Below, piece by piece: positions 5,675 to 37,500 of a DNA stretch of 47,137 nucleotides (the first letter of the stretch is position 1; every line of letters begins with the position of its first letter). The DNA is from Chiloscyllium plagiosum. Lineage: Eukaryota. Position numbers and translations under genes: made by a program. Location: NCBI RefSeq assembly GCF_004010195.1, contig NC_057719.1:34693692-34740828 (forward strand), given 5' to 3'. A model generated the notes under the pieces. That model saw only the letters and a program-made list of their open reading frames with translations. It was not told where the DNA came from and did not search any database.

Positions 5675-5791
5675 GGAGCAGAGGGATACAGATGCTTAGG
5701 AATTGGGCAACAGGTTTAGACAGCAGATTTGGATCAGCGCAGGCTTGGAGGGCCGAAGGGCCTGTTGCTGGGCTGTAAATCTTCTTTGTTC

Positions 5792-11407: not shown

Positions 11408-11800
11408 TAGCGAGTTTTGAGAAGATTTGTAGCTCAGGTTGATGTAGGTTTGCTCGCTGAGCTGGAAAGTTCATTTCCAGACGTTTCACCACCCTAACAG
11501 GTAACATCTTCAGTGGGCCTCTGTGTGAAGCACTGTTGATAATTCCTGCTTTTTATTTAGGTGTTTGGGTTTCTTTGGGTTGGTGATGTCTTTTCCTCTG
11601 GTGACATTATTTCCTGTGGTGTCACAGGAAATGATGTCACTGCAGGAAATGACATCACCAACCCAAACAAACTCAAACATATAAATAGAAAACAAAAATT
11701 ATCAGTAATGCTTCGCCCGGAGGCCCACTGAAGTTGTTACCTAGTAGGGTGGCGAAACATCTGGAAATGAACCTTCCAGCTCAGTGAGCAAACCTATATC
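11408..11800. mobile_element. Penelope-like non-autonomous insertion (family B), inverted pLTR pair
   Basis: About 370-bp imperfect palindrome centred near 11620; 13-bp TSD caaacccatgaat (11395-11407 / 11801-11813); hammerhead motif in each arm. Confidence 0.8.
11477..11516 (-). ncRNA. Minimal type I hammerhead ribozyme motif (family B)
   Basis: CCA CUGAAGA U GUUACC uguuag GGUGGU GAAA C GUC UGG; the opposite-arm copy at about 11725-11764 (+) has core mutations. Confidence 0.7.
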
Positions 11801-12052
11801 CAAACCCATGAATATTTGACACAGGCCCACCCAGACTATTGGTGGGGTAGTGTCCTGACTATGATCAAATGCATTGGCCTGTTCAATAGCAGAAACAAAT
11901 CTCACCTGGGCAGCTGGGTCTGAATGACCCAGAACTCAAAGAAAAGAACAGGAATCAAGGTTAAATTTCAGCATTCATATAACATGAACCCAGAGAGCAT
12001 GTGAAAACCAAGATGGGTCTGGCCAACATTAGTAAGATCAAATGGAGTCCAG

Positions 12053-13231
12053 AGAATAGGAGCAGGAATAGGCCATTCTGCCCTTTGAGCCTGCTCTGCC
12101 ATTTAAAATGATCATAGCTGATCACCCAACTCAGTACCCTGTTCCCACTTTCTCCCTTTATCTTTTGATCCCTTTAGCCCTAAAATATATCTAATTCCTT
12201 CTTGAAAACATTCAACATTTTGGCCTCAACTGCTTTCTATGGCAGAGAATTCCACAGGCTCACCACAAATCCCATCTCAGTCCTAAATAGCCTAGTCTGT
12301 ATCCTTAAACTGAACCCTGGTTCTGGACTGAAAATGTGTTGCTGGAAAAGCGCAGCAGGTCAGGCAGCATCCAGGGAACAGGAGAATCGACATTTCGGGC
12401 ATAAGCCCTTCTTCAGGAATCCCTGAAACGTCGATTCTCCTGTTCCCTGGATGCTGCCTGACCTGCTGCGCTTTTCCAGCAACACATTTTCAGCTCTGAT
12501 CTCCAGCATCTGCAGACCTCACTTTCTCCCCTGGTTCTGGACTCCCTGGTCATCCTTCCTGCATTTAGCTTGTTAGAATTCTATAGGTTTTCCATGAGAT
12601 CTCCCATCATTCTTCTAAATTCCAGTAAATACAATGCATCCAGCCCCTCTTCATGTGTCAATCCTACCATCCCAGGAATGCATGCTTATTGTCAGCAATT
12701 GGCATATAAAAATAGTCAGGTCTTGTTGCATCTCCCCCTTTCCCAATCCAACAGCATTCAGATAATATTCTGCCTTCCTGTTTTTGTCAAGGTAGATAAC
12801 CATATATTTATCCACATTATACTTCATTGGCCATGTATTTTCCCATTCACTCAACCTGTCTAAGTCACACTGAAGCACCTCTGCATCCTCCTCACAGCTC
12901 ACCACCAACCACCAACCACACAACCCCACCACCCACCTACCCAACCCATCCAGCTTTATATCATCAGCAAACTTGGAGATATTACATTTAATTCCCTCAT
13001 CTAAATCAATAATATGTATTGTGAATAGCATCCCTGCAATATCCCACTAGTTACGGACCATCACTCAGGAAAAGACCTCTTTATTCTTAATCTTTGTTTC
13101 CTGTCTTCCAACCAGCTTTCTATCATTGTCAGTACACCACCCCAATCCCATGAACTGTCATGTGACATGCTAATCTCTTTTATGGGACCTTATCAAAAGC
13201 CTTCTGAAAGTCCAAGTAAACCACATCCATA
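12053..13231 (-). mobile_element. CR1 fragments (3' end and RT), interrupted by the Penelope insertion at 12330
   Basis: Tail ataggagcaggaataggccatt; minus strand IIDLDEGIKCNISKFADDIKL and DFQKAFDKVP. Confidence 0.85.
12330..12528. mobile_element. Penelope-like inverted pLTR insertion (family A)
   Basis: Palindromic arms, 37-nt tail on the right arm, 15-bp TSD ccctggttctggact (12315-12329 / 12529-12543); minus-strand CUGAAGA AGGGC uuau GCCC GAAA UGUC. Confidence 0.88.
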
Positions 13232-13325
13232 TTTATTTAATTGTTCTACCATCTCTTTATTTCCTATCATAATTTTGCCTGTTTCTGACTGTAAGGGACC
13301 TACAATTGTCTGCTGTAATCTTTTA

Positions 13326-13956
13326 CATAAGAACATAAAAACATAACAAATAGGAGCAGGAGTAGGCCATCTGGCCCTTCAAACCTACTCTACCATTCAA
13401 TATGATCATGGCTGATCTTTTTGTGGCCTCAGCTCCATTTACCCTCCCTCTCAACATAACCCTTAATTCCTTCACGGTTCAAAACAAAATCTTAGCTTTA
13501 AAAACATTTACTGAAGTAGCACCAGCCACTTCACTGGGCAGGGAATTCCATAGATTCACAACCCCTTGGGTGAAGAAGTTCCTTCTCAATTCAGTCCTAA
13601 ATCTGCTCCCCCAAATTCTGAGGCTATGTCCTCTTATCCTAATTTCACCTGCCAGTGGAAACAACCTCTCTACTTCTAGCTTATCTATTCCCTTCATAAT
13701 TTTGTATCTTTCTATAAGATGCTCCATTATTCTTCTAAATTCCATTGAATATAATCCCAGTCTACTCAGTCTCTCCTTATAAACCAATCCCCCCATCTCC
13801 AGAATCAACCTGCTGAACCTCCTCTACATCCCCTCCGGTGCCAGGACATCCTTTCTCAGATAAAGAGACCAAAACTGCAGGGATACTCCAGGTGTGGCCT
13901 CACCAGCACCCTTTACAGCTGCAACATAACCTCGCTGCTTTTAAACTCAATCCCTT
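13326..13956 (-). mobile_element. CR1 3' fragment
   Basis: YKERLSRLGLYSMEFRR...RRNFFTQGVVNLWNSLP; tail acataagaacataa. Confidence 0.9.
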
Positions 13957-14619
13957 CTTCTTCAGTCCTTAGCATTTCAAACAAACAAACAAACATTATA
14001 TCAAAATAACAGAAAGTGTTGACTTTAATATAAGAATTACATCATGTCCGCACATTCTGGTCATATTAACCCCTCACCCTTTAACTCTGCTCCATCCAAT
14101 AACTGTCTGCAAATTCTGCAGAAAATTGGCTTGTGTGCATATATAACCTGACAGCTATTCTCTTTTGGTTGCTTGCCAATCTAAGAATTTATTATTAGTC
14201 TAAATTCCTACTTCCAAACCAATTTTCTATCATCACCACTTAATTACATGGACTACAACTTAGGTTTGCAACCTCCTGCGCAGAATTATTTTTTTAAAAT
14301 CATTTGATCCATGAATAAAGTATACATTTCTATACACCACTACTGTCAAGGAATTCATATTAGGTCAGTAAGTCATGATCTACATTTTATTAAATTATGG
14401 TGATTCTTCCTTAGCAGCAATATATACATTTTCAAGTACTCATTTATTCTGTAACGAAATCTAGCAATTTCCCACAATTGACATCAAACTCACTAGCCCG
14501 AAGCATCTTGTTCTTTTGTTGTTTTAAACATTTCCAGTATTGTACCTGAGTTGAATATGCTTTCAGAGATTGCAGATACAGTCACACTTTAATACTCTAA
14601 GAGTGGGAATCAGGTACAT

Positions 14620-14890
14620 TTTTTTTTACGTCTTGGGATGTGAATTTGTTTAACAGTTATTACAGTTTGCTGAGGTGGGGATGAGTCCACTCTTCAACAC
14701 TTGCTGTGAAAAACAGTTGCTTTTGCATTGTTTTTAGGCACGAAATTCCAGGATTTTGACCAAGTGACAATGAAGGAGCAATGATGTGTTTCCAAAGTGT
14801 GCATGTGGCTTGGAGAGAAACTGGTCCCATGCAGCCACATTCTTGGTTGTACATGGAGGCTGATGGTCGCAGGTATGGATAATCACCTGC
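14620..14890 (-). mobile_element. 3' end of a CR1/L2-group LINE (same family as 17375-17660)
   Basis: Reverse complement shares gtcact.ggtcaaaatcctgga with about 17480-17502. Confidence 0.6.
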
Positions 14891-15217
14891 ATTTAATGTG
14901 GCTACATTACAATTTTGAATTACATCAATCCCCAATAATACTTGCCCCTTCTTGAGTCACTTCTCTTTAACTTTCTTTTTTTAATGTGAAATTTAAAACA
15001 AAATTACAATGTATCAATTTTTCTTTATTGTCATGTTTAGATTTGTTGGTTTAAGCACTTGTTGCTTCCTTTACCACCTTATCTTCCTAATATACTTATT
15101 AAAATATGTGCTCTGAGCCATTGTGCTATTCAAAAGTGTTTTTCATGCACCCGATGTGACCTTATATTTCATTCTTGAGTTGTCTTCTACAATTCTTTTT
15201 CTTAATCTTGCATGGAG

Positions 15218-17208
15218 CAGTGGTTTACTAAGGAAGTTGAATCTCTTGTCAAGAGGAAGAAGGCGGCTTATATTAGGATGAACTGTGATGGCTTAGTTAG
15301 GGTGCTTGAGAGTTACAAGTCAGCCAGGAAAGACCTAAAGAGAGAACTAAGAAGAGTGAGGAGAGGATATGAGAAGCCGTTGGCAGATAGGATCAAGGAA
15401 AACCCTAAAGCTTTCTATAGGTATGTCAGGAATAAAAGAATGACTAGAGTAAGATTAGGGCCAATCAAGCATAGTAGTGGAATGTTGTGTGTGGAGTCAA
15501 AGGAGATAGGGGAAGTACTAAATGAATACTTTTCATCAATATTCACGCTAGAAAAAAACAATGTGGTCAAGGAGAATACTGAGATACAGGCTAGATGGGA
15601 TTGAGGTGCATAAGAAGGAGGTGTTAGCAATTCTGGAAAGTGTAAAAATAGATAAGTTCCCTGGGCCGGATGGGATTAATCCTAGGATTCTCTGAGAAGT
15701 CAGGGAGGAGATTACTGAGCCTTTGGCTTTGATTTTTATGTTGTCATTGTCGACAGGAATAGTGCCAGAAGCCTGGAGGATAGAAATATTATTCTCTTGT
15801 CCAAGAAGGGGAGTAGAGACAACCCTGGAAATTATAAACCTGAGATCCTTAATTCAGTTGTGGGTAAAGTGTCGGAAAGGGTTATAAGAGATAGGATTTA
15901 TGATCATCTAGAAAGGAAGAAGTTGATTAGGTCATACCTCACAAACCTTATTGAGTTCTTGGAGATGGTGACCAAACAGATGGATGAGAATAAAGCAGTT
16001 GATGTAGTGTGTATATGGATTTCAGTAAGACATTTGGTAAGGTTCCCCATGGTAGGCTATTGCACAAAATAGGAAGGCATGGGATTCAGGGTAATTTAGC
16101 GGTTTGTATCAGAAATTGACTAGCAGAAAGAAGACAGAGGGTGGCAGTTGATGGAAAATATTCATCCTGGAATTCAGTTACTAGTGGGGTATTGCAAGGA
16201 TCTGTTTTAGGTCCACTGTTGTTTGTAATTTTATAAATGAGCTGGATGATGACTAAGAAGGATGGGTTAGTAAATTGACACTAAGATCAGTAGAGTTGTT
16301 GATAGTGATGAAGGATGTTGTGGGTTACAGAGAGACATAGATAAGCTGCAGAGCTGAGCTGAGAGGTGGCAAATGGAGTTTAATCCGGAAAAGTGAGAGA
16401 CGATTCACTTCGGAAGGAGTAACAGGAATGCAGAGTATTGGGATAATGGTAAGATTCTTGGTAGTGTAGATGAGCAGAGAGATCTCGGTGTCCAGGTACA
16501 TAGATCCTTGAAAGTTGCCACCCAGGCTGATAGGGTTGTTAAGAAGACATACAGTGTGTTAGCTTTTATTGGTAGAGGGATTGAGTTTCAGAGCGACGAG
16601 GTCATGCTGCAGCTGCACAAAATTCTGATGTGGCACACTTGTGGTATTGTGTTCAGTTCTGGTTTACCGCATTATAGGAAGGATGTGGAAGCTTTGGAAA
16701 GGGAGCAGAGGAGAGTTACGAGGATGTTGCCTGGTGTGGAGGGAAGATTTTACGAGGAAAGTCTGAGGGACTTAAGGCTGTTTGCGTTAGAGAGAAGAGG
16801 TTGACAGGTGACTTAATTAAGACAAATAAGATAATCAGAGGGTTAGATAGGTTGGACAGTGAGACCTTTTTCTTTTGATGGTGATGGCTAGCACAAGGGG
16901 ACATATCTTTAAATTGAGGGGTAATAGATATAGGACAGATATCAGAGGCAGTTTCTTTACTCAGAGAGTAGTAGGGGCGTGGAATGCACTGCCTGCAATT
17001 GTAGTAGACTCGCCAACTTTAAGGGCATTTAATTGGTCATTGGATAGGCATATGGTTGAGAATGGAATAATGTAGGTTCGATGGACTTCAGATTGGTTCC
17101 ATAGGTCGGCACAACTTTGAAGGATCTACGTACCTGGACATCAAGATCACTCTGCTCATCTACACTACCAAGAGTCTTACAATCTGGACTGTAATATTCT
17201 ATGTTCTA
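15218..17208 (+). mobile_element. 5'-truncated CR1 (ORF2 RT region to 3' tail)
   Basis: IKENPKAFYRYVRNKR, KGSRDNPGNYKP, LTNLIEFLE, FFTQRVVGAWNALP; tail ttctatgttctat. Confidence 0.92.
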
Positions 17209-17374
17209 TTAAACATTCTCATCCATATAAATATTTTCAGCTTTATTTAATATTGGTGCTCTCATAGATCTTAAATGCAATTTCAGAATGATATTTTTTG
17301 TTATTGAACAGTGAGCAAACACTTCAGAGATTTGCCAAAGATCCTGAGACAGCACTGTCTATTGACGATTTCCA

Positions 17375-17660
17375 TCAAGAAGGACAAGGGCAGCAGATAC
17401 ATGGAACATCACCACCTGCAATAGTTCCCCTCCAAGCCATTCACCATCCTGGCTTGGAATTATATCGCTGTTCTTTCAGTGTCACTGGGTCAAAATCCTG
17501 GAGTTCCCTCACTAACAACATTGTGGGTCAACCTATAGCACATGAACTTCAGAAGTACAAGAGGCAGCTGACAATTACCTTCTCAAAGGGAAATTGGCAG
17601 TAGGCAATAAATGCTAACCCAGCCAATGATGCCCAGATCCTATGAATGAATTAATAAAGA
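17375..17660 (+). mobile_element. 3' end of a CR1/L2-group LINE; likely partner of the SINE at 25698
   Basis: SFSVTGSKSWSSL (non-LTR C-terminal WNSLP-type motif); tail ggcaataaatgct...atgaatgaat resembles the SINE tail. Confidence 0.65.
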
Positions 17661-17759
17661 AATCTATGCTACTAGTTAGAACAATCTTACTGTTTTGCAC
17701 CAGTAAGGGAGAGTAAATTTAGTTGAGGTAGAAATTAAGACTGACCAATACTCTGGCCT

Positions 17760-18356
17760 ACATTAGAGTGGTGCTGGAAAAGCACAGCAGGTCAGGCAGC
17801 AGCATCTGAGGAGCAGGAAAATCAACATTTTGGGCAAAAGCCCTTCATCAGGACTGAAGCTTTTTTTTTACAATAGGTGGATGGGGATGGTGATGAAGGT
17901 GATATGTCAGAGAGGAGTGTGGGGGAAGGTTCCCAAGAGTACAATGGGTGGATGGGGGTGGGGATGAAGGTGATAGGTCAGAGAGGAGGGTGGAGCGGAT
18001 CGGTGGGTATTAAGATTGGCAAGTAGGACAGGTCATGAGGATGGTGCTGAGCTGGAAGGTTGGAACTGGGGTAAGGTAGGGGAGGGGAAATGAGGAAACT
18101 GGTGAAGTCACTTGATGCCCTGGGGTTAAAGTGTTCCTAGGTGGAAGATGAGGCGTTCATCTTCCAGGTGTCAGGTGGTGAGGGAGTGGCAGTGGAGGAG
18201 GCCCAGGACCTCATGTCTTTGGCAGAGTGGGAGGAGGGCTTTTGCCCGAAACATCGATTTTCCTACTCCTCGGATGCTGCCTGACCTGCTGTGCTTTTCC
18301 AGCACCACTCTAATGTAGACTCTGATTTCCAGCATCTGCAGTCCTCACTTTTGCCG
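17760..18356 (-). mobile_element. 5'-truncated Penelope-like element (family A) with inverted pLTR and GIY-YIG C-terminus
   Basis: 13-bp TSD aatactctggcct (17747-17759 / 18357-18369); minus strand VLGLLHCHSLTT*HLEDERLIFHLGTL*PQGI resembles the PLE GIY-YIG C-terminus; inverted arms carry hammerhead remnants. Confidence 0.88.
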
Positions 18357-19248
18357 AATACTCTGGCCTGGCTATGAAGTCCTTTGGGAGATCTTACTAA
18401 ACAGCACGGTTGCTTTGTTGGAGGGAGATGGTTGCTTGCAGCTGATTGAAAACAAATCAGTTATTTCATTGCTTTGACTCTTGACAGATGGGTTTATGAC
18501 CTCCTTGTTTAATAATGTGCTACCCAACTGAATGAACAACTAACAAAGTGAATCTTAATCTTCCTAAAACAAAGCTGAAATTTTCTCTCTTTGGCAATGG
18601 TCAAACATCTATGTCATTAATAGGTCATTAATTGCTTCCATTAAGTAGGGGATAATTTCATAAGGTTGCATTACTGGGTAGAAAGTCTTTCTCTCAGGGC
18701 ACTCTTGTTCTCTTTAGATGCTGATTCACACTTCTTCAGAAGTAATCCCCACCTATTCATTCACAAAATAGGGTTCTGAAGAAAATCAAACAAACTGGAT
18801 ATTCTTAAATGAATAGGTATGGAAATAGCATTGGTACAATAGCATAAAGCAAGCAGTAATTAATTGAAATTGATGGAAAATAAATCTGGGTGTAATATAA
18901 AATGTGCTGCGTTAACATTGGGGTTAGAATTTGCTTTTGGTCATTCTGCACTTTTAGAAGAAGCTAATTTCCTACTTTGAAAGTTTCAAGAGCATAGTTT
19001 AATAAATCCAAAAATACAGATTGATGTTGGATGTTAGGTCAAGTTTGCCAAGTTTAGAGTGCAAGTGACCACCTTAAATTACACACAATATCTAACTGGA
19101 ACCCAAGCTTGTCAATCAGATTGGTATTGATTTGCTGGTGATTCCTGCAGGGAAATTCTGAGGCCATGCTTTACTAACCAATCTATTCCCAGCAGGTCAG
19201 GCATATTAAAATACAACTCATTATACTGTTACATGCTTTATTTTACAT

Positions 19249-20090
19249 GCCATTTACAAGTTCGTTGATGACACCACCATAGTTGGTCAAATCTCAGATG
19301 GTAACGAAACAGACTACAGACGGGAGGTGGAAGACCTGGAAAAATGGTGCACTGAGAACAACCTAGCTCTCAATGCCGGCAAAACCAAGGAACTCATTAT
19401 TGACTTTTGGCCGGATGTTATTCATGCCCCCCCTACACATTAACAAGACAGAGGTGGAACGAGTGGAAAGTGGTCACGCTCCTGGGAGTGGTCATCCACA
19501 ACAAGCTTTCTTGGACTCTTCATGTGGACGCACTGGTTACAAAGGCCCAACAACATCTCTTCATCCTCAAGCAGCTGAGGAAATTTGGCATGACGGCGAA
19601 TACCCTTGCCAACCTTTATAGGTGTGCCATCGAGAGCTTTCTATCTGGATGTATCACTACCTGGAATGGCAACTGTACCATTCAAGATCGGAGACGGTTA
19701 CAGAGAGTGGTGACCTTGGCCTGGACAATCACAAAGGCCAACTTCCCATCTGTAGAATCCATCTACCAGGCCCGCTGTCAAGGAAAGGCCGTCAGCATTC
19801 TCAAAGATCCATCCCACCCTGGAAATGTTTTTCTACAACCTCTACCATCGGGGAGAAGGTACAGAAGCCTGAACAAATGCACCAACTGGTTTCAAAACAG
19901 TTTCTACTCTACTGTTGTTAGAATACTGAATGGACTCACAAACTCTAACATTCATCTGTACCTGTGTTTTTGTTTACCTATCATTTACTTATCTATGCTA
20001 CTTAACTCTGTGATCTGCCTGTATTGCTCACAAAACAAAGATTTTCACTGTGCCTTGGTACACATGACAATAAATTCAATTCAATTCAAT
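19249..20090 (+). mobile_element. Rex1/Babar-clade LINE, 5'-truncated
   Basis: IYKFVDDTTIVGQIS..ETDYRREVEDLEKWCTENNLALNAGKTKELIIDF; ILKDPSHPG..LPSGRRYRS; (ttcaa)n tail. Confidence 0.88.
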
Positions 20091-20403
20091 ACTTTTTTTA
20101 ATATTGTTGAACATTTGTAATCTACACTTTCATTCTCAATTTTGGCTACATGTTTTCAACAATATGAGCCAAGCCATCAACACACAGCACTCCTGTCACT
20201 TGAAATATGGTCTCTATATATGTGCTGCCAACAAAAACAATAGGAAGCATGCTGAAAAGGTCAAGTGGCTCATGAAATAACTCCATGAAGGATGGTATCC
20301 CGTCACCTGTCACCCTTTATTTACACATACGTAGTACATGGCACTGATTCAGCTAGCTCAGATCTGGTTCCTAGAGTGAACCAAACCCCTGACATTCCTG
20401 TTT

Positions 20404-20537
20404 TTTTGTTTTTTTTTATTTTATTAAACAAATTACAAAACAGTTTACCAAAAACAGTTAACATTTACTGCTGTATACAACAGCAATTTTACAAGGGAGA
20501 GGAGCAGCAAAGCAAGGCCCCAAACCCTACCATTCAA
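20404..20537 (-). mobile_element. Short polyadenylated retroposed insert
   Basis: T-rich left end with tttatt (AATAAA on minus); 12-bp near-TSD acattcctgttt (20392-20403) / acactcctgttt (20538-20549). Confidence 0.6.
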
Positions 20538-22259
20538 ACACTCCTGTTTATATCTGTCAGCCAGGGCTCCCTGATTGGACCAGATTAACAGCTTCAATCA
20601 GGGAACTCATATTCTATAATGGCCACATGGCTGTTCTCATTCCAATTACGAAAGTTTATTAAAATGTAGTTCTTGGTTGTGTTCCATTGGGCAGCTGAAC
20701 AGCATAATTGGCATTCCCAGAACACCAATTATGCACTTGTCTTAAATCAATATTGGTAGCTAGCTTCCCATCAAATTAACTAATATCTACCTATGATATA
20801 ATGTAGCTTATTATATTATAAAATTCTAATCTCCTAATGGTAATTTAAGCAAAGGGGCATCCAGTAATATTACCTGATCACTCAGTGTTGGGTTGGCTGA
20901 CTTAAAAATCATCAATCTTACCTACAGGTCAGGGCATATAAAGTCTGTTATGGCATTTCAGTTACTTAAATGAGCCTCCTTTTGTACGTTATTTTTGTCA
21001 TATCACAATCCTGTTTGCGATTCCCACAAGGCAGCAGCAACAAAGCAGGCAAATCAGGAACTCTTGCCTCATCAAGACTGAAAGTTCCCTCAAATCAGTG
21101 TTTGTCTCTCTGAACTTTCCTATAGCTCAATGCAGAATGATATCATCCATTCATCCTCAACAGTATTAGTCACAGGTGATAGTTGACTCAGACTTCAGGG
21201 TTTTAATGTGGTATCATTGAAGTAAAATACCAGACATAGGTGAGGAAAACAGGCAGCTCAAACAGCTCAATGTGTTATGGAAGCAGCATTAACCTCCATT
21301 TCCATGTTGATCACTGATCACCGCGGAGAAGTGCTGAGTGTCTGCTTGGTGCTTATCATATAAATAGCTGAGTCTCAGAATCATGCAGCATTCTGTGCAC
21401 AGGAAGGGGGATAAAGGGCAAATTGAGAATGAATACTTCCTCAAAAAAAAGGAGAAATTGTCAACAAGATCTGAGATGATAGACAAAATATACAATGTTG
21501 TTGTAAATAAATACAGTACATTGCACACTAGTGTCAACAGAGTGGTTGGAAGGACTGAGGACTACAACTTCAACTTCACTTTGGGAATCAAACTTCCCGA
21601 AATCATAATGCCACCTGCTGCCCACCCAGTGCTAGAACCAGCTGGCAGTCAGCACTGCAACTTCCAGACATAGGCCCAAGGTACAGCTCAGTTCACATGA
21701 CCCTCATTTTCCTGCACCCACATTCCCTCTCACACTCACAGGCCTCGCATGTACATCCTCCATGGTCACACAACCAGTACCAACAACATATAGAACTCTC
21801 GTGCTGTATAGTACCATAGGAAACTCTTTCAGGTATTGATAACTGTCCAGATAAACAATCATTCAAAATCACTTCAAATGACAAAAATATCCACAACACA
21901 ATTAAGTGGTCATAAAACTAGCCAGAAAGTCAAAGGGAGAAATTTCACCAGTGACCTGTCATTCCCAAGGACAGAACTAGAAGCAGCACCACTGCCCCCT
22001 CCACCTCATCCAAGGCAATTCTTCACACCTGAGCAAAGTCTTAGACCAGCCTTGTAGACTGTCCTCCCAGGCATTAGGAATCAAGAAGGCATGCTCTCAA
22101 CAAGCGATGATTGAGGCTGCCAGGGAATGGTGACTGGAATAGAGAGTCATTTCCAGCAAAAACTGAAAGTTACACTCCATCACATTTAGAGCCATAGACT
22201 CTACACAGCAGTGACAAGGGAAAAATGGAGCTGTAATATCTCCACTGCTTTCCACATAC

Positions 22260-22945
22260 CCATAAAAACATAGAAAACTGGAGCAGGCCATTTGGCCCTT
22301 TGAGTCTGTTCTTAGCACCCTGCTCCCACTTTCTTCCCAAACCCTTTGATCCCTTTAGATCAAAGAACTATTTCTAACTCTTTCTTGAAAACAATGTTTT
22401 GGCCTCAGCTGCTTTCTGTGGTAGAGAATTTCACAGGCTCACCACACTTTTCTCATCTCAGTCCTCAATGACCTACACCATATCCTTCGGCTGTGACCCC
22501 TGGTCTTGGTCTGCCTGGTCATCAGGAACATCCTTCCTGCATTTACCCAGGATAACCCTGTTAGAATCTTTTAGGTTTCAACAAGATCCCCACTCATGCT
22601 TCTAAATTCCAGTGAAGATAGTCCAAACCTGATCCATTCTTTCTTCATAAGTCAGTCCTGCCATGCCAGAAATCAGTCTGGGAAACCTTTGTTGCTCTCC
22701 TTCCATAGCCAGAACATCCTTCCTTAGATAAGGAGACTAAAATTTCACACAATACTCCAGGTGTTGTCTCACCAAGACCCTGTACAATTACAGCAAGGCA
22801 TCCTGTCCTCAAGTCCTCTTATTATGCAGACCAATATACAATATGTCTTCTTCACTGCCTGCTGCACCTACATGTTTACTTTCAGCAACTGGTGTACAGG
22901 AGTATCCTGCTCTGCTTCCACCTCCCATTTCCCAATTGATTACCA
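22260..22945 (-). mobile_element. CR1 3' fragment
   Basis: Tail cataaaaacatagaaaactggagcaggccatt; similar to the 12053 fragment. Confidence 0.8.
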
Positions 22946-23479
22946 TCATCCTTGGAGCGAAAACAAAGTTAGCATTTGAAGTGAGTGACCCTTCTTGAGA
23001 ATTGTTTGTTTCAGATCTCTGCAGCCACAGTTCTTTGCTTTATTATGTTAGAGGCAGCCATTTTTTTCACAGCACCAGCCACCTCTATTACTGGTCTTGA
23101 TGAAACCAATAGGTATCCAGCAACACATTTCCATCCCTGTACAATTACAGCAAGGCATCCTGTCCTCAAGTCCTCTTATTATGCAGACCAATATACAATA
23201 TGTCTTCTTCACTGCCTGCTGCACCTACATGTTTACTTTCAGCAACCGGTGTACAGGAGCACCCTGCTCTGCTTCCAACTCCCATTTCCCAATTGATTAC
23301 CATCATCCTTGGAGCGAAAACAAAGTTAGCATTTGGAGTGAGTGACTCATCTTGAGAACTGTTTGTTTCAGATCTCTGCAGCCACAGTTCTTTGCTTTAT
23401 TATGTTAGAGGCAGCCATTTTTTTTCACAGCACCAGCCACCTCTATTACTGGTCTTGATGAAACCAATAGGTTTCCAGC
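22778..23479. repeat. Tandem duplication of about 344 bp (22778-23121; 23135-23479) with a 13-nt spacer
   Basis: Near-identical direct copies; duplicated peptides in the ORF track (QLQQGILSSSPLIMQTNIQ). Confidence 0.95.
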
Positions 23480-23680
23480 TAGTGTCCCATTGGCTACTGT
23501 GGGAGAAAAACAAACCACTCTGCCTGTCCACCACTTGCTCACAGAAACCATGTCTGTTCTTAGCCAAACAGAGCCTACCCATAATGCCACCGGCACCTCA
23601 ATTAGACCACACTCATCTTAGGAAGTAAGAGTGAAACGAGACATTACCTAAGCAGTTTCCCCTGACTGATGGATTACACT

Positions 23681-23808
23681 GTTCCTGATCAAGGGCTTTT
23701 GCCTGAAACATCGATTTTCCTGCTCCTTGAATGCTGCCTGACCTGCTGTGTTTTTCCAACACCACACTCTTGACTCTGATCTCCAGCATCTGCAGTTCTC
23801 ATTTTCGC
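23681..23808 (+). mobile_element. Solo Penelope pLTR (family A) with decayed hammerhead
   Basis: cctgatcaagggcttttgcctgaaacatcg...ctccagcatctgcag; 15-bp TSD with 2 mismatches (23666-23680 / 23809-23823). Confidence 0.82.
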
Positions 23809-25697
23809 CTGAAGGAATACACTACTGAGATGATCTGCTAATTGGTTTTCCTACCTCACAATAGCATCACCGCTCCTGAAGCCCTGAGGGCATTCCATGT
23901 CTCCCCAGATACTCAATCCCCACAAAGCTCATGCAGGTGGCACCAAGATACCTGACAAGAATGAACACTACCTTAGAGACCTACTGAAGCCAGGATGCTA
24001 GCCATTAGCACTCATCTCTGCAGATTAGCTAAAACTCTTGTTACAATTGTTAACTGATGGATACTGCTGGACAAACAATTGTTTTCTATTAACTGTAATG
24101 GAAACTGCATTGTCTTGTAATTAACATTTCACTACTGTAACCCTCTAAGAACTGTCTGTATCTGAAGTTCAGTGAAGAGAATCCTTGACTTGACTGTGCA
24201 AAGTGTCCATTTTGTATCAGTCCAGTCAATTTCTCTTCCTCACCATATGGTGAGAAATAAAACAGTGTCTGTCAATTTCACAAGATCTGTGTGTGACCTT
24301 TATTTGTAATTGGACAATTCTCTGACAGTTACTGTCCCAGTCATGTCACTAATTTTAATTGGACAGCAATTTTGACCAACCCAGAGCCCTAACATCTATC
24401 TGACGAGACTTGGAACCTTCTTTCAGTTATGGCAGTGAGACTCCCCAGCTGTTGAAAAGTATTAGACCTCAAATTTGACCATCTCTCCACAAGATTGCCT
24501 GATCCACTAAATATTTGCAAAGATTTGTTTCATTTTAGGCAATTTTTCTTTACTGCTTCCGTTGAGTTGCCTGCTCCAATTTCCCTAGCCTTGCAATCAC
24601 CCAGAATAGTCAAAACTAGGATTGAGTTTGCCATGAGTAAATATTCAAAAATAAAAAAAGTCAGGCCTGGTTTCAGTAAATCTGCTCCAGACTGAGACAG
24701 ATGTTCAGTCATTTCTTAATCTGGCACTGAGCTGTGTTCTAATATTTTGTTGGAATCATCCCAGCTGCCTCCTGACATCCACAAAACATCAAAAAGATTT
24801 GCAAATGCTAAAGATAAAACAATGTTCACCAGCAGGCTTTGGATTTAAGTAGTTACTCAATCTAAGATAAAGTCTACATTGAAGCGAAGTATCCATGTAT
24901 TGCATTTTTATTCAAACTGAATATAAATGGCATAGATGAACTCAACCAATAGCAGCTGCAGGAAACAATTGGGACAAAATGACAGCTGTGTACTTCTATA
25001 ACAATGCAACTTTCAAGCTACCAATTTCTAACAGCCAATTTAATGGGTCAGATGATGTAAGCAGCTACCATGATTAAAGAGCACCAGATTGCAAAACATG
25101 GACACCCACCAAAGATTACTATTGCCACCAAGAAAAGCAATGGAAAATGTGCAGTCCTGCCCAAAAAAAAGCTCTAGTTCATTAGCAACTATTCATCCAG
25201 TGAATATCATAATTATGAGAGTTGGTGGGAATCAGAATATCAGAAATACAGGAGTGAGAAAGGGAAAGCTATCTTGAGGGATGATGTTTCGCAACAGCAT
25301 TACTGTTAAATCTGTGAACAAAGGACTTAAAAATACTTTATTTCCAAATGAACTCCACATGAAATGAAAAGCATACAACAAGGTCTTACTTTCTTTAAAA
25401 AATGCACTTATTGAAAATTGGAAAAAAACCACTGCAGAGAGCTCCAAATCATTTATTTTCTTGCCAGCACCATTTCTTTATCAGCAATTCTGGGTAGAAT
25501 TATTTCAGTTTAATCCAGTGACCCAACAGCCAAAGGAATTATTTTCAATAAAATTAAATGCATTATTATAATAACTGAAAGTAAGTAATGGAAAAATTCA
25601 AAACACATTACACTTATATTTTTCAAGGATTAGGTTACAATCTTTTAACTTTTAATCTTTTAACAAATTGGGAACCAATAGCTTCGTTGAATTGGTA

Positions 25698-26053
25698 ACA
25701 GCCTATTGGTATTAATGCTGAACTGTTAATCCAGAGGCCCAGGGATGTTCTAGGGACATGGGTTGGATTTGAATTCCATGCAAATCTGGAATTAAGAGCC
25801 TAATGATGACCACAAATTCATTGTCAGTTGTTGGGAAAAAGGCCATTAACAATATCACTAGGCTGATGCCTCACCAACTGGTTTACTAATGTCCATTCGG
25901 GAAGCAACCTGCCATCCTTACCTGGTCTGGCCTACACGTGACTCCAGACCCACAGCAAGGTGGCTGACTCTTAACTGCCCTCTGGGCATTAGGGATGTAT
26001 GATGAATGCAGGCGTAGCAGTGACACCCTCATCTCATGAATGCATTAAAAAAA
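25698..26053 (+). mobile_element. Degenerate SINE, probably tRNA-derived, with LINE-like tail
   Basis: A-box-like agcctattggtatt; body repeated at 8570; A-rich tail. Confidence 0.65.
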
Positions 26054-26833
26054 CCTCAGTTCCTCATCTTCACACTCTTTGTCTGCATTACTCTAACTCC
26101 ACTGTTTTGTTGAGAATGACAAGTGAGCCATTCACTATTCTTGGCCATTGGATAAAAATAATTCCTATCATTTCTTTTCTGATTTTCACACTATCCAATG
26201 CCTCAAGGAGTGTTATTTAAACAAACGCAGAATGTCATAGATAATGTTTCAGATTTGGCTCAGCAGTATCATTCTGTCCTCAATTCAGGGAGTTGTGGAT
26301 TCTTGCCAAATCCCAGAGACTTAAGAAAGATTTTGCATGTATATAGAACATTTCACTTTAAATGTGTTTTAAATTAATCTTGTAATCTGCACATTGGACA
26401 TGGGTGTCTAAATTTCAGTCCCTAAAGTTGCTTGTGCTTTATCACCAGTTAAGTATCTTCACCTCTTCATATAGTGTAACATTCTTTCAGTTACATCTTT
26501 ACATAGTAAGTTATCAAATATGAATCTCCAGTAGAGTGTCTACTTCCTGTCTCTCTTCACATGCTCAATCTAAACAGGTCTTCTCTCTTCCTGATTTCAG
26601 AATCATGCCATTAATTACATCACTATGATTGACATAAATCTCAATACATTGCATTCCCCCACACTCACCTCTCCCATCCCCATGTTTCTTTGTACATATT
26701 GCACCTTATCCTAGTAGTTTGATTCTACTTATACAGTCACTATGATAATTAATATCATGACCATAATTATTACCATTATCGCTGTTATCACCATCTTTCC
26801 TCCTGCCAACCCTTAAAGGCCAAATTTCACAGA

Positions 26834-27237
26834 CCGTGATTTGGAGATGCCAGTGTTGGACTGGGGTGTACAAAGTTAAAAATCACACAACACCAGGTTA
26901 TAGTCCAATAGTTGTAACTGGAAGCACACTAGCTTTCGGAGCGTCGCTCCTTCATCAGGTGATAGTGGAGAGCTCAATCCTAACACACAGAATTTATAGC
27001 AAAACTTTACAGTGTGATGTAACTGAAATTATACATTAAAAAATTGATTGTCTGTTAAGTCTTTCATCTGTTTGAATACCATGATAGTTTCACTTCTTTC
27101 ATGTGTAAAACACAAAACCTTTTTTTAAATAGTTGCAATCTCAGGTTAGCTGTTAACAATGGTGATAGCTAGACAATATGTTGAAGGTGTTAGGCCCCTG
27201 TGATCTCTGTCTATGCCATGATGTTTAGATTGATTCT
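26834..27237 (-). mobile_element. Penelope-like pLTR/3' fragment (family C)
   Basis: Contains an intact hammerhead motif on the minus strand about 90 nt from the left end; boundaries approximate. Confidence 0.7.
26927..26961 (-). ncRNA. Minimal type I hammerhead ribozyme motif (family C), intact core
   Basis: CAC CUGAUGA A GGAGC gac GCUCC GAAA G CUA GUG: stem I CAC/GUG, 5-bp stem II, palindromic AGCU in place of stem III. Confidence 0.82.
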
Positions 27238-27380
27238 GTGTGCTCGTCTCCTGAACGGGGAGCAGACTTTAAAAACTCTGAGCCACAGAGGAAAAGCATT
27301 TAATCGATTTACTGGATAATCGATTATGCGAACAAAATAGTGCCCACCCATTTCATTCGGATAATCGAGGTTCCCCTGTA
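27238..27380 (-). mobile_element. One end of a Tigger/pogo-like DNA transposon or MITE
   Basis: Minus strand begins TA-caggggaacctcgattatccg with an internal gattatcc repeat, typical of Tigger-type TIRs; second end not found. Confidence 0.5.
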
Positions 27381-27894
27381 CACAGGACAAAAACAGCCAA
27401 TACCTACTGTTGTTTCTCACTGACGTTTTTCTCTAGTTGGTTTACCTTCCAACGTCTTCGGAGATTATCTTTGGCTTGGCATTTTTAACCTTTTTCCTAT
27501 TAACAGTTACTCATCAGTATTGTGCAGTGACTGAGTAGAACTAATTTCCAGGAAAGGTTGCATATCTCTGTTCAGCCTTTGTCAAAATGCCCAAAATAAA
27601 ATAGACTGATTTTCAGCAGTTTGCACTTGAATAAGGACCACTCCTAGCCCTCAGGATCATGTATCAACTGTAACAATAGTGAATAAATTGGGATTGTAAT
27701 TTCAGTTACAAAGTAACTTTTCCTTAATCGTTCCAAAAGTTCCATTCTATTCCAAACTCCAATGTAACCATGAGCCTTTTTTCAAAAGGTCTCTTATGGT
27801 TTGAGTAAGATTGGCTAACCTGGAGATAAGTTTCACTCAGAGAGTGAGTGCTGAGCCAGAGAAAGCAGCTCAGGTCAAAACAGCCCGGGAACTA

Positions 27895-28877
27895 TTGGCC
27901 GATAAATCTGACATCGGTAGTGGGTAAGTTGTTAAAGGTGATTCTGAAAGATTGGATTTACATGCATTTGGAGAGGCAAGGACTGATTAGGGATAGTCAG
28001 CATGGTTTTCTGTGAGGGAAATCATGTCTCACAAACTTGATTGAATTTTTTGAGGAGGTAACCAAAAAGATTGACAAGGACAGGGTGGCAGATGTTGTTT
28101 ACTTGGACTTTAGTAAAGTCTTTGCCAAGGTTCTGCAATGGTAGACTAATTAGTAGATCAGATCATGTAGCATTCAGGGTGAGCTTGCCAATGGATACAA
28201 AGTAGGCTTTACAGTAGGAGACAGAAAGTGGTGGTGGAGGGTTGTCTTTTGGACCGGAGGCCTATGACCATCAGTGTTCCACAGAGATCAGTGCTGGGTC
28301 TACTTTATTTGTCATTTATATAAATGAGTTTGATGAGAATATAGGAGGCATGGTTAATAAAATGGTGACATATAGATAATGAAGAAAGTTATCTAACATT
28401 ACAAAGAGATCTTGATCAATTGAGTCAATGGGATGAGGACTGCCAGATGGAGCTTAATTTGGATAAATGTGAGATATTGCATTTTGACAAAGCAAACAAG
28501 GGCAGCACTTATATAGTTAATGGTGAGACCCTGAGTAGTGTTGTCGAACAGAGAGACCTAAGGGCTCAGGTTCATAATTCTTTGAAATTTGTGTCACAGG
28601 TAGACAGGGTAGTTAAGAAGGCATTTAGCTCCCTTGCTTCATTGTTCAGACCTTTGAGTATAAGAGTTAGGATGTCATTTTGAGGTTGTGCAGGACATTG
28701 ATGAAGCCTCTTCTAGAGTATTGTGTGCCGTTCTGGTTACCCTGTTATAGGACGGATACCATTAAACTGGAGATGGTTCAAGAAAGATTTACCAGAATGT
28801 TGCCAGGAATAGAGGGTTTGAGCTGTACAAAAAGGCTGGATAGGCTGGGACTTCTTTCACTGGAGCGTACAGATTGA
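27895..28877 (+). mobile_element. CR1 RT fragment
   Basis: SCLTNLIEFFEEVTK, YLDFSK, LEYCVPFWLPCYR. Confidence 0.88.
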
Positions 28878-28879
28878 TT

Positions 28880-30660
28880 ACCATTGTGGTCCATAATGGG
28901 CCCTACACTTTCCTTTGTTATCCTTAATGTATCTGTGAAAGAAAATAAGGATTTTCCTTTATTTTACCTGGCATTACTTCATGCCTCCTGATTTCATTTT
29001 AAGTTTCCCTCACACATTCTCCACTCCTCTGGGGCTTCTCTGTTTTGAGCCCTCAGTTTCTGCAATAAGCCTCCTTTTTTTCTTCATCCAATCCTAAATA
29101 TCACTGGATAGTCAGTGCTCACAGAATTTGTTGGTCCCACCCTTTGTCTTTATTAGAACATGTTGGCCCTATGCTCTCCCTATTTCCTTCTTGAATGCAT
29201 CCCACCACTCTAACACAGATTTACCGAAAAGGTATCTGCTCCCAGTCCACTCCAGCCAAATCTGCCCTGATCTTAGTAAAATTGGCCCTCACCCAGTTTA
29301 GAACTTTGATTTCAGGCTTACCCTTATCTGTTTACATAACAATCTTGAATCTAACAGGATTATAATCAAGGTCTGTAAAATGCATCCCCATTGATATATC
29401 TTCACCTAAAATTAAGTCCAGGACTGTTCCATCTCTTGGGAGACCCTCTACATGCTTGTTTAAAAAATCTCTTCTGGATGCATTTTAAGAATTTCACTCC
29501 CTGTAAACATTTCATATTATGACGACCCTAGTTAATGTTGGGAAATTTGAAATCGTTACTATCACTATCCTACTCTTTTTATACTTCTCTGCAATTTGGC
29601 AATTTGGACTGTTAGGGGCCTGATAGTACAGTCCAGTCATGTGATTACTCCCCTTTAGTTTTTAACTTCTACCCATATGGCTCCTGTTGAGGAACATTTT
29701 AAGATATCATCCCTTCTTACTGCTATAATTGATCCCTGATGAATATTGTAACACCTCATCCTTGTCTACCTCCTTCCCTGTCTCACCTGACGATCCTATA
29801 TCTTGGAATGTTGAACTGCCAGTCCTGCCCCTCTCTCTCAACCATATCTCAGTAACAGCAATTACATCGTACCCCCAATGTTTTAGTTTGTAACCACATT
29901 TTTCATCGATGCCCTTGCTTTAAAATAAATACCATCCAATCTCCCTTGTGCCTTAACTGGTCTACAACTGTTATGCCTCCCTAACTGATTTGCTGTCTCT
30001 TCTCATGTTGGTTGTTCACTGCCACTTGCCCCTGTCCCCTGCCAAATTAGTTTAAATTGCCCCTACAGCACAACCAAATCTCCCCACAAAGATACTGGTC
30101 CCAATCTGGTTCAGGTGCAAACCATCTGCCTTGTATTGGTCCTGCCAACCCATAAGAATGGTCTCAATATCCCAGACATCTAAACTACCCCCTCCTCCCA
30201 CACCATCTCTCCAACCATGTATTCATCTGGATTGACCTCTTATTTATATACTCACTAACGTGGGCACTGGGAAGTAATCCAGAGATTACTGTCTTTTTGG
30301 GTCCAGTTCCTTAAACTAGTTTCTCGCTTCCTAAACTCAGCTTTCAGGATCTCATCCATTTTTCTGCCTATATCATTGGCACTAATACCTACCAGGATCT
30401 ATGTCTCTTTACCCTCCCAATTCAGAATGCTCTGCACCATTCAGTAGCTTCCCTGACCTGGCACTGGGGAGGGAACATACCATTCCGGAGTTTCTCCTGC
30501 GACTGCCTCTCTGCTCCCTTTATGAATGAGTCCCCTCCCATGATAGCCCTGTCACTCTTATTCCTTCTTTCTTTTGGAGCAAACTCACCCATGGTGCCAC
30601 AAAGCTGTTTGTTACTGCTTTCCTCTGCACAGATATCTTCCCCAACAGTATCCAAAACAG
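28880..30660 (-). mobile_element. Old CR1 fragment (ORF1 esterase and ORF2 endonuclease)
   Basis: DTVGED...RAIMGGDSFIKG, DGLHLNQIG, tttaaactaa ORF1 end, degenerate APE. Confidence 0.8.
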
Positions 30661-30767
30661 CATCCAGCTACAGCTGATAATGAAACAATAATGTACTTTG
30701 AAGCAGTATTTATAACCAAACAAGAGAGGATGTGTAATGTTGTCTGTCTCTGGAGCAATGTGCTTAC

Positions 30768-30843
30768 CATAAAACTCCATAAACGGGTGCTCTGCTGGAA
30801 GCTTTTTGCCAGAACTCTCCTCATCGACAACATACAGAATAAT
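30768..30843 (-). CDS. Candidate small host-gene exon (IILYVVDEESSGKKLPAEHPFMEFY; a second frame is also open)
   Basis: Pyrimidine tract plus AG acceptor (30844-30845) and GTAAGC donor (30762-30767) in non-repeat DNA; protein not recognised. Confidence 0.4.
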
Positions 30844-30901
30844 CTTTGTCAGGAAGTTAAGAAGGAGGAACGCCACAGACATATGCATTTAAATAACTTA
30901 C

Positions 30902-30950
30902 TTGTATATTTAAGTATTTGATGACACTCATAAATGTTTTCTTCCAATCA
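30902..30950 (-). CDS. Candidate 49-nt host exon (DWKKTFMSVIKYLNIQ)
   Basis: Acceptor ttgcttttgtgttctcAG, donor GTAAGT; single open frame, in phase with the downstream candidate exon. Confidence 0.4.
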
Positions 30951-31511
30951 CTGAGAACACAAAAGCAATTGGTTAATATTTAAATTAAATAGACACCACT
31001 ATAATTTGTTTGTTTCATTCATACAGTTACAACAAATAAAAACTTAATCATTTAAACAAACACAATGTCTCCTCCCTATGTAACATTTTCATTTGCAGTT
31101 TTGATATGGTCACCAAACGTGGCCAAGAAGTAATAGGTCTTGGTAGGGAATTTTTCTTTTTTTTAACAGAATTCAGCAATGATGACTAGTGACCCATAAC
31201 AAAGAACTGGTTCATGCACAATATCATGAACAGTAACCTTGGCTTTCCTTTCAATCAGGCCTGCTACCAACTCCACTCTTCAGTCAGATGCTAGGTTTCA
31301 GAGCAGCATGATTCACTGTTCACCTAACAGTACGTTTATGCTCAAAGTCTTACCTTATGCTATAGCAGAGAGGAAGAATTTTCCACATGTGGAATTCCAG
31401 CACAAGCCCCTATCTCATCAGTCTCACTGGCAAGGTGTGCTGAAACTTCTGCTAGTTATTTATATTTCTCCAAACATTTCTGTGCCTCCTTCTCACCACT
31501 ATCTGTTTACA

Positions 31512-31809
31512 GTGGCATGGTGGCTCAGCAGTTAGCACTGCTGTCTCACAGCGCCAGAGACCCAGGTTCAATTCCGGCCTCAGGTGACTGCCTGTGTGGA
31601 ATTTGCACGTTCACCCATGGCTGCATGGGTTTCCTCCCACAGTCCAAAGATGTGCAGGTTAGGTAAATTGACCATGTTAAATTGCCCACAGTGTTTCAGG
31701 GATGTGTAGGTTTGGTGCATTAGTCAGGGGAAATATAGGGTCGGGGTCTGGGTTGGTGTGGACTTGTTGGGCCAAATGGCCTGTTTCCACACCTGTAGGG
31801 ATTCTGTGA
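31512..31809 (+). mobile_element. HE1-type V-SINE (tRNA-derived)
   Basis: A box tggctcagcagttagc, B box ggttcaattcc, V domain tgtgtggaatttgcacgttc..cctcccacagtccaaaga, CR1-like tail. Confidence 0.9.
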
Positions 31810-32059
31810 CTACTCCTTCTATTGAACTATTATATTTGAGCTGAAAGATTTTCATATTATATCTACACAGATGCTAAATGACTAAATAGCAATGAAACTT
31901 TTCATAATTGACTGCTTTTGCCTGACCTTCTTAGCCTCAGCCTCCAACTGTCAAAATCTTTCTATCTTCCTAGCCAATGCCAACTGTCCTGAGGCTGTTA
32001 AGACAATGGAAAGATAGATCCCTCCTATGTTCTTCAGCAGTTTTGTTTTCCACTGATCC

Positions 32060-32078
32060 TACACAGCAGGGGGCAAAC
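32060..32078 (+). promoter_or_regulatory. Candidate CTCF motif
   Basis: acaCAGCAGGGGGCAaa in non-repeat DNA; motif match only. Confidence 0.3.
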
Positions 32079-32739
32079 ACCTGCCACTCCAAGAAATTAC
32101 AAGCTGTTCAGAGGCTACTGCATATCCTCAAGGCATTAAATATTTATTAAAGCGAAATGCTGAGAAGATGCCAAATTTTGAGATGGCTTCTCAATCCTAC
32201 CACAAACTCCCAGAGGAATCTATTGTGGTGCGTAACTGAGAGCAATTTACACTAAAAACAAAGAAGATTATGTACATTTTCCTTGAATTTGCACACAGTC
32301 CTCTACAGTAAAGGCAAACATCGCATTCTGATCACAAGATGATAAATAATTCAAGTTAAAAATTAGCTTTTTAAATTAGTTCCATTATTATGACTATTAG
32401 GGTATGTTAATCAGGTTCAGTAATAATGATTCCTCGTAAGTGTACTAGTGCACACAATATTCACATAAAATTTCTATGCATTGTTTTACCACAAATATAA
32501 GATTTAATCCAAATTTTTATGGAAACAACTACTTGCATATTAAACAGTATGCAAACAATTTGTACAAAATATCTGACCATTCCATTTTTTAAAAAATCTC
32601 TCTCCACGTTCCTCTGCATCTCAGAGCTCTACAATCACTCACCATTTAAACAATACACTTCTTATTTTATTCTATCCTGCAAAAATAGGCAATTTCATAT
32701 TTTCTTAGATTATACTCTATTTGCCAGCAGTTGCCCAAT

Positions 32740-33060
32740 CGCATAACCAATCTATACCCCTTTGTAGCCTTTTTGTATCTTCTTCACAACTTACTTTCCT
32801 CCCTAGATTTGTGTAATCAGCAAATGTAGCTACCAGACCTCTGTCCTTTCATCTAAGACATTTATATAAATTGTAAGTAGTTGAGGGACCTGCATTGACC
32901 CTGTGCCACTACTCATTACATCTTTCCAATCTGAAATTGAGCCATAAATGATTATTGTTTCCTTTTAGTTAGCCAATCTTCTATCCATGACAATAAGTGG
33001 TCACTCACGCCACTGGTTTTTATTTGCTGTAATAACCTTAGATGTGACATCTCATCAAAT
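32740..33060 (-). mobile_element. Old CR1 RT fragment
   Basis: Minus strand QGQCRSL / FADYTNL remnants of the PQGSVL and KFADDTK motifs. Confidence 0.65.
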
Positions 33061-33213
33061 GATCAGTTGAATTTAGAGGCAGGTGGGGTGAAAATGAGGA
33101 CAAGGGGAGCAAAAAGGAAGGCACGTCGGAAGAGGTGGAGTGGCAAGTTGTTTCATCAGGCACACACAGACAGAGGACAGAATCTTACCTGAAATTGCCA
33201 ATTATCAATTTTG

Positions 33214-33433
33214 AAGAGAAAATGAGGTCTGCAGATGCTGGAGATCAGAGATGGAAATGTGTTGCTGGAGAAGCGCAGCAGGTCAGGCAGCATCTAGGGA
33301 ACAGGAGAATCAACCTTTCGGGCATTAGCCCTTCTTCAGGATTCCTGAAGAAGGGCTAATGCCCGAAACGTCGATTCTCCTGTTCCCTAGATGCTGCCTG
33401 ACCTGCTGCGCTTCTCCAGCAACACATTTCCAT
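33214..33433. mobile_element. Penelope-like inverted pLTR insertion (family A), young
   Basis: Near-perfect palindrome 33250-33434 centred at 33342; 36-nt left tail; perfect 15-bp TSD caattatcaattttg (33199-33213 / 33434-33448). Confidence 0.9.
33339..33378 (+). ncRNA. Minimal hammerhead ribozyme motif (family A), intact core
   Basis: ggauuc CUGAAGA A GGGC uaau GCCC GAAA C GUC gauucu; predicted cleavage after 33372. Confidence 0.78.
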
Positions 33434-37160: not shown

Positions 37161-37164
37161 GACT

Positions 37165-37182
37165 TGGGGGCTCGTCCAGGAT
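37165..37182 (+). other. Primer binding site, tRNA-Pro
   Basis: TGGGGGCTCGTCCAGGAT, 17/18 match to the MLV PBS-Pro TGGGGGCTCGTCCGGGAT. Confidence 0.92.
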
Positions 37183-37491: not shown

Positions 37492-37500
37492 AAGGTAAGA
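37492..37500 (+). promoter_or_regulatory. Probable major splice donor of the ERV leader
   Basis: AAG|GTAAGA between PBS and gag. Confidence 0.55.

Follow-up and report, generated by a model that had tools for sequence, protein, structure and literature searches.

The 47,137-nt stretch of Chiloscyllium plagiosum DNA analysed here (hereafter the window; contig NC_057719.1, positions 34,693,692 to 34,740,828) holds six insertions of three repeat families, A, B and C, which together bear 10 hammerhead arms. Judged from the reading frames to which they are linked elsewhere in the genome, the three families are the pseudo-long terminal repeat (pLTR) 3′ ends of endonuclease-bearing Penelope-like elements (PLEs). 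The six positions at which an initial annotation had placed these repeats are all starts of real insertions, and its estimate of about nine motifs or remnants agrees with the number of arms counted. Target-site duplications (TSDs) are present at four of the six insertions. The insertions and their complete hammerheads are listed below, each arm being given by the window coordinate of its C3.

11409..11802: family B (Poseidon-like) head-to-head insertion; 13-nt TSD; tail on the left arm alone; C3 at 11513(-), complete, and 11728(+), A9>U
11475..11516, minus strand: hammerhead B, minimal and complete; CCA/UGG as stem I, U as the extra nucleotide, 7-pair stem II, ACGU palindrome
12328..12530: head-to-head stub of family A (Neptune-like) with a TSD of 15 nt; C3 at 12416(-) with decayed palindrome; the plus arm begins at +14, lacks CUGANGA and bears the tail
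17758..18356: family A insertion; 13-nt TSD; the minus arm holds a degenerate GIY-YIG C-terminus (about 17870-18240) and a G12>A hammerhead at 17851; the plus arm begins at +7 and bears the tail
23682..23812, plus strand: family A solo stub, tailed; begins 3 nt before C3; G8>C (CUGAUCA)
26834..27238, minus strand: family C (Neptune-like) 5′-truncated copy; about 280 nt of 3′ untranslated region (3′-UTR), hammerhead and tail; no clear TSD
26927..26961, minus strand: hammerhead C, minimal and complete; CAC/GUG as stem I, A as the extra nucleotide, GGAGC/GCUCC as stem II, AGCU palindrome
33214..33433: family A head-to-head stub, near-perfect; TSD of 15 nt; two hammerheads, 33339(-) and 33345(+), each with the junction 2-4 nt 5′ of its C3

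The CUGANGA and GAAANNUH boxes surround stem II, with no helix III, in five of the 10 arms (C3 at 11513(-), 12416(-), 26958(-), 33339(-) and 33345(+)), and all five have the extra nucleotide, a paired stem II and NNUH. No box-intact motif was found in 100 Markov-resampled windows. The other five arms are remnants, three with a core substitution (11728(+), 17851(-) and 23685(+)) and two without CUGANGA (12419(+) and 18235(+)), so that the hammerhead that the initial annotation had described in all three families is box-intact in half of the arms. Similarly, the 4-nt palindrome that it had seen throughout is intact at 11513, 26958 and 33345 and decayed in the other two box-intact arms; its description was accurate for the additional nucleotide, for the pairing of stem II and for the stem I pairs of families B and C. 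Complete motifs, with the palindrome and a 3-pair stem I, occurred only at 11513(-) and 26958(-), and none was found in controls. The published descriptor of minimal hammerhead ribozymes (min-HHRs), as re-implemented here, matched three of the 10 arms. By computed folding, the three window palindromes each form a single hairpin (-151 to -263 kcal/mol; -184/-191 kcal/mol for the 33214..33433 stub), and hammerhead B is predicted to be buried inside a 178-bp inverted repeat. Hammerhead C, the only complete window arm outside an inverted repeat, has its predicted cut site between 26930 and 26929.

The same architecture was recovered across the 3.56-Gb genome, which we sampled at fixed round positions in 80 pieces of 10 kb each (779 kb once gaps are removed). 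All 46 strict matches in this sample had an extra nucleotide separating position 9 from 10.1, with a scan that permitted 0 or 1; it is U in family B, where it makes an ATG together with A9 and G10.1 (as in the window's hammerhead B), and A in families A and C. Positions 15.2-16.2 were CG or GC in 34 of the 46, and the CpG-decay forms CA/TG were found in nine more. Stem I has at least three contiguous pairs in families B and C and in one A subfamily (four pairs), whereas the main A subfamilies have two contiguous pairs, a U.U mismatch and then one A-U pair, and fail the published descriptor for this reason. The descriptor gave 19 matches with a 3-pair stem I versus 50 with a 2-pair stem I. The longer stem I of the arm at 33339 was created by the inversion junction. 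The stems differ again in at least four more hammerhead subfamilies (L042, L074, L080, L088, L037 and others), with stem II GGGUC/GACC, GAGUC/GACU or GGGU/ACCC, together with a B subfamily with stem I GCA/UGC. An Rfam scan returned no hammerhead family among 14 matches (E up to 10), as would be expected for a motif that has no helix III, and its miRNA matches were rejected as being merely the palindromes.

The identity of the carrier elements was established from frames lying on the same strand as the motif. In family A, a 725-residue frame ends ahead of the hammerhead at locus L134, with Pfam matches to RVT_1 (E=2.8e-6) and GIY-YIG (6.5e-4). Frames with reverse transcriptase (RT) and GIY-YIG domains lie upstream of the family B hammerhead at loci L150 and L143, the GIY-YIG matches in the A and B frames being just below the Pfam cut-off. 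For family C (L215, L229), a GIY-YIG frame was found about 500-600 nt upstream of the hammerhead, and its RT was not retrieved. The assignment to PLE-type minimal type I hammerheads made in the initial annotation is thus borne out by linkage. Its description of the families as unrelated holds at the DNA level, where their ends match only in core boxes of 7-8 nt; the encoded proteins, in contrast, are homologous (A versus B, E=4.5e-19; C versus A, E=3e-5), which makes the families clades of one retroelement class, distant relatives among PLEs, and argues that the motif was inherited across all three. A convergent origin of the three motifs was rejected on the same ground. The family A protein had no match among solved structures. 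A CX4CXXC linker is present in A and C and absent from B, a distribution that points to Neptune for A and C and to the Penelope/Poseidon clade (Poseidon) for B, with the proviso that Nematis also carries the linker.

One full-length B unit was recovered (L297), with an inverted arm, a hammerhead at 466, RT, GIY-YIG and a second hammerhead at 3437, all on one strand, so that its same-strand hammerheads lie about 2.97 kb apart. The 5′ hammerhead of family B was present in 2 of 28 orientable loci (30 picked). No full-length A or C unit was found, and none for A among 30 loci chosen by an N-terminal fragment; long PLE copies very often contain or adjoin runs of N (L131-L150 and L266-L295 among them), which limited recovery. 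At L261 the ATG frame of family B runs beyond the tail. Family A stubs were observed inside PLE open reading frames (ORFs) at L261/L296 and L279, one host being a B element and one an A element with a TSD, and both stubs begin about 5 nt before C3. The window also holds an isolated fragment of a family A PLE reverse transcriptase at 34888-35049(-), with 52% identity over 56 residues.

The genome scan that the initial annotation had proposed revealed a large excess of motifs over controls. Exact patterns matched 63,689 sites for A, 12,257 for C and 3,292 for B, and none in controls; a looser A pattern with perfect stem II matched 123,838, and a generic two-box pattern with no pairing test 306,115, versus 843 in the reversed control. 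From the sample, the 46 strict motifs (controls 0) extrapolate to about 210,000 per genome (154,000-280,000), the 19 descriptor matches to about 87,000 (52,000-135,000), and the 207 copies to nearly a million pLTR ends. The genome thus holds roughly 100,000-300,000 minimal hammerhead sequences, most of which are likely to be inert leftovers of transposition. Motif counts are not ribozyme counts: the very large genomic load proposed in the initial annotation stands as a count, and the word ribozyme overstates it, given that about half of the copies spanning the motif lack a core box and that paired motifs lie on opposite strands. The density of the window, which had been singled out, is ordinary for this genome (5 motifs versus 2.8 expected, P=0.15).

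We then considered whether the stems are compensatory, as had been claimed, and whether the copies are under selection. We selected 52 distinct B-lineage sequences by their core boxes, with pairing playing no part in the choice. Among them, 94% of cells were paired and three pairs had double changes (stem I C-G to G-C; stem II U-A to C-G twice). Double-change cells numbered 24 versus 7.1 in shuffled alignments (0/500). In family A, one stem II pair had changed from G-C to A-U in 6 of 98 copies, versus two single transitions. The compensation therefore lies between master lineages or subfamilies and not among individual copies. Decay was followed in 113 sampled A copies, with changes scored against the local master state by base class. 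G12, the general base of the hammerhead (PMC6155905), was changed in 15 of 107 copies (14.0%) versus 78 of 553 (14.1%) at other CpG sites, and genome-wide the 18,826 G12>A versions, set beside 123,838 intact motifs, made up 13% of all A-type motifs. Stem II G/C positions showed no protection (6.6% changed versus 5.4% elsewhere), and, among copies spanning the motif, 40 of 83 in family A and 10 of 21 in family C retained both boxes. Because G12 is lost at the CpG rate, stem II is unprotected and about half of the copies lack a core box, selection appears to act on master elements, with little or none on the copies, which decay largely neutrally. A first selection test (core 2.8% versus 6.7%) was set aside, since it was skewed by alignment ends and subfamily sites.

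The arrangement of the 207 sampled copies (154 A, 20 B and 33 C) was then analysed. Head-to-head pairs less than 400 nt apart accounted for 87 copies, and a same-strand neighbour within 500 nt was found for eight. Since the two motifs of a head-to-head pair are on opposite strands and form a long hairpin, and solo copies have no partner, a dimer in cis would be available mainly in full-length units; cofolding of short homodimers returned no dimeric hammerhead, a result that is uninformative on dimer formation. The tail was on exactly one arm in 41 of 44 head-to-head pairs, which matches the two RT start sites described for Anolis Poseidon (PMC11167929). Counts of breakpoint hazard were made after leaving out 12 of 154 A rows (six that were shared upstream and six located at gaps or locus edges), 1 of 33 C rows and 10 of 20 B rows. 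Of the copies at risk, 83 of 111 in family A and 21 of 25 in family C had their 5′ end no more than 10 nt from C3, a rate of 0.054-0.055 per nt; in these families it was 0.008-0.013 per nt around the cut site and 0.006-0.007 further upstream. Because the 5′ ends cluster at the 5′ edge of the motif and not at the cut site, the copies must derive from RNA that was uncut at the motif. In family B, 1 of 10 copies stopped at the 3′ hammerhead, with no pile-up there, and two copies with a 5′ hammerhead ended about 6 and 19 nt upstream of that motif. Read-through at the 3′ motif together with ends ahead of the 5′ motif fits an RNA end better than a block by the fold, and PLE promoters are reported to lie in the pLTR (PMC2377424, PMC6765202). 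The pile-up at the 5′ edge may instead be due to stalling of RT or, at the ATT that precedes the A core, to cutting by an endonuclease. An apparent family B pile-up (8/20 at -2) was dropped as an artefact of a subfamily missing from the references, and a breakpoint run whose references included palindromic and chimeric copies was discarded and redone.

Family C differs in its downstream sequence. An AAUAAA or AUUAAA signal at +38/+40, 9-11 nt past the cut site, was present in 50 of 60 C copies, the corresponding numbers being 10 of 160 for family A and 2 of 98 for family B; it is mutated in the window's family C copy (26834..27238). We aligned 3,448 reads from one run (X19), a single-cell poly(A) library of a related organism of another species; no reads aligned from run X20. 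Reads over the C hammerhead and UTR were strongly biased to the sense strand of the element. Loose ends of poly-T lay at two positions at which the DNA is not rich in A, 26898 (268 reads) and 26901 (249). These data indicate that, in the related organism, RNA with the motif still in it is polyadenylated about 30 nt past the cut site. Family C reads crossed the predicted cut site without a step, in a library that cannot capture cut RNA. Reads of the related organism also showed the 5′ edge at which the genomic copies cluster, with 319 loose ends 4 nt before C3, about equal in both orientations.

Taken together, we hold with good confidence that the three repeats are the 3′ ends of three PLE families bearing the known minimal type I hammerhead, and that the copies are mostly inert by-products of short run-off copying. 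In the mechanism that we infer, two same-strand copies in a full-length element would pair via the 4-nt palindrome and cleave, probably helped by a protein of the element. Two sites, about 85-95 and 115-125 nt downstream of the core, would serve as start points for reverse transcription; in families A and C, the enzyme would usually reach the 5′ end of its RNA just ahead of the motif and run off. Run-off would leave solo or head-to-head stubs of 90-130 nt that decay afterwards, and selection is likely to retain the motif only in rare full-length elements. Several observations weigh against this account. The commonest A subfamilies have a stem I of just two contiguous pairs, and cleavage of Anolis Poseidon was unnecessary for insertion in vitro (PMC11167929). 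An RNA 5′ end near the motif depends, in family B, on two copies, and reads of the related organism showed no position where many molecules start or end cleanly. The number of B pairs with a double change (3 versus 2.3 shuffled, 175/500) was not significant, and double-change cells count inherited events repeatedly, the independent events being few and passed on by subfamilies. Finally, core A/U sites of the A copies were changed less often than other A/U sites (9/484, 1.9%, versus 122/2819, 4.3%; P=0.008), which may reflect residual subfamily differences or weak selection on copies.

A different explanation, which we regard as unlikely, is that the motif is mainly a structural signal, either a protein-binding site or a stop for reverse transcriptase, and that cleavage is vestigial in these families. 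It would account for breakpoints at the 5′ edge and for the weak family A stem I, and it agrees with Anolis, where catalytic mutants still insert in vitro and no reads end at the cut site (PMC11167929). However, every lineage retains NUH and the entire catalytic core whereas the stems vary, family B has the motif without the pile-up, and a block by the fold should halt RT 3′ of the stems. It is very improbable that the dispersed copies act as ribozymes on host transcripts, cutting them through trans dimers or with cellular help, such that the load shapes host RNA. Some 87,000 copies match the published descriptor, copies are transcribed in the related species, the family C motif precedes a used poly(A) signal by 10 nt, and the core A/U sites are slightly better kept; but loss of G12 at the neutral CpG rate, the scarcity of same-strand neighbours, the long hairpins of the head-to-head copies and the reads that cross the cut site, albeit in a library unable to capture cut RNA, all speak against such activity. 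The least credible proposal makes the short palindromes non-autonomous mobile units of their own, similar to retrozymes or miniature inverted-repeat transposable elements and copied whole, which would suit their own 13-15-nt TSDs and very high copy number but not the junction that varies by copy, the one-sided tails, the lengths that grade into ORF-bearing copies or the rarity of tandem arrays, retrozymes being defined as tandem repeats (bioRxiv 10.64898/2026.07.22.740005).

Beyond the preferred account of inert run-off copies, a further scenario for family C can be offered as speculation, with the odds well against it. In this scenario the genome would have the densest hammerhead population among the published counts found, and thousands of family C insertions, in which a working poly(A) signal follows the cut site by 10 nt, would serve as RNA 3′ ends whose tail is cut off once dimerisation or an element protein switches on the predicted ribozyme, and an RNA 5′ end ahead of the motif would turn most copying into strong-stop-like stubs.

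The remainder of the window is rich in other repeats. An endogenous retrovirus-like provirus occupies 36663-44780(+), with direct repeats (36663-36962 and 44481-44780) that are 98% identical, Pfam matches to Gag_p30, RVT_1, RNase_H and integrase in several separate frames, and a 55-nt N gap at 40763-40817. Many fragments of long interspersed nuclear elements and short interspersed repeats, with repeated 3′ ends, are found at 3325-3975 (endonuclease match), 4600-5800, 8870-9300, 16000-16800 and 28100-28870, and there are several long inverted pairs, for example 9345-9479/10470-10604 and 6454-6575/7673-7794.

Minimal hammerheads in the pLTRs of metazoan PLEs were described by Cervera & De la Pena in 2014 (PMC4209133), and every structural feature cited in the initial annotation is already in that work, to which the present genome adds a new and very abundant case. 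The likeness extends to the core boxes, the extra nucleotide 9/10.1, G10.1-C11.1, the palindromic 15.2-16.2 and the lack of helix III, and to the occurrence of several sequence families per genome, mostly as single, truncated or opposite-strand copies with few inside full PLEs. The interrupted stem I of the main A subfamilies, in contrast, departs from the published descriptor. No shark appears in the PMC4209133 text or supplement searched, one supplement file being unsearchable, and no report for this lineage was found in the literature searched, which did not extend to bioRxiv supplements that possibly list counts for cartilaginous fish. What is added is scale: the same descriptor yields about 87,000 motifs here, whereas Xenopus tropicalis has about 9,000 and coelacanth 4,000 (PMC4209133), which makes about ten times the published vertebrate min-HHR count.

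In published assays of PLE hammerheads the monomer was inactive and the dimer weak (PMC4209133), and the hammerhead of Anolis carolinensis Poseidon (PAc) cleaves only with protein, while RT starts at two internal sites (PMC11167929). In PAc, as in family B, the ORF start codon (A9-U-G10.1) falls where stem II begins and a 30-40-nt tail lies between two 3′ end points; the protein-assisted cleavage of PAc has been assayed (PMC11167929), whereas the families described here are known from sequence. Families A and C differ further in that their extra nucleotide is A and not U. The insertion unit of endonuclease-bearing PLEs shows the same head-to-head arms, one-sided tail, TSD and 5′ truncation (PMC8557442, PMC3846280), and the CX4CXXC linker of A and C occurs in Neptune (PMC8557442); what sets the present genome apart from those units as described there is the extreme share of stubs that end at the 5′ edge of the hammerhead. 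The pLTR ends record where PLE copying starts and stops, a record that bears on the role of the PLE hammerhead: the copies come from uncut RNA and end ahead of the motif. Non-LTR retrozymes likewise reach 10^5 type I hammerheads per genome (axolotl, 126,247; PMC7229834). They differ in having canonical motifs in tandem non-coding repeats (PMC7229834, bioRxiv 10.64898/2026.07.22.740005), whereas those studied here are minimal motifs in dispersed PLE ends; a retrozyme identity was rejected given that 8 of 207 copies had a same-strand neighbour within 500 nt and that the families are ORF-linked. The density in the present genome, 24-86 motifs per Mb, is much higher than that of axolotl, with its 28-Gb genome.

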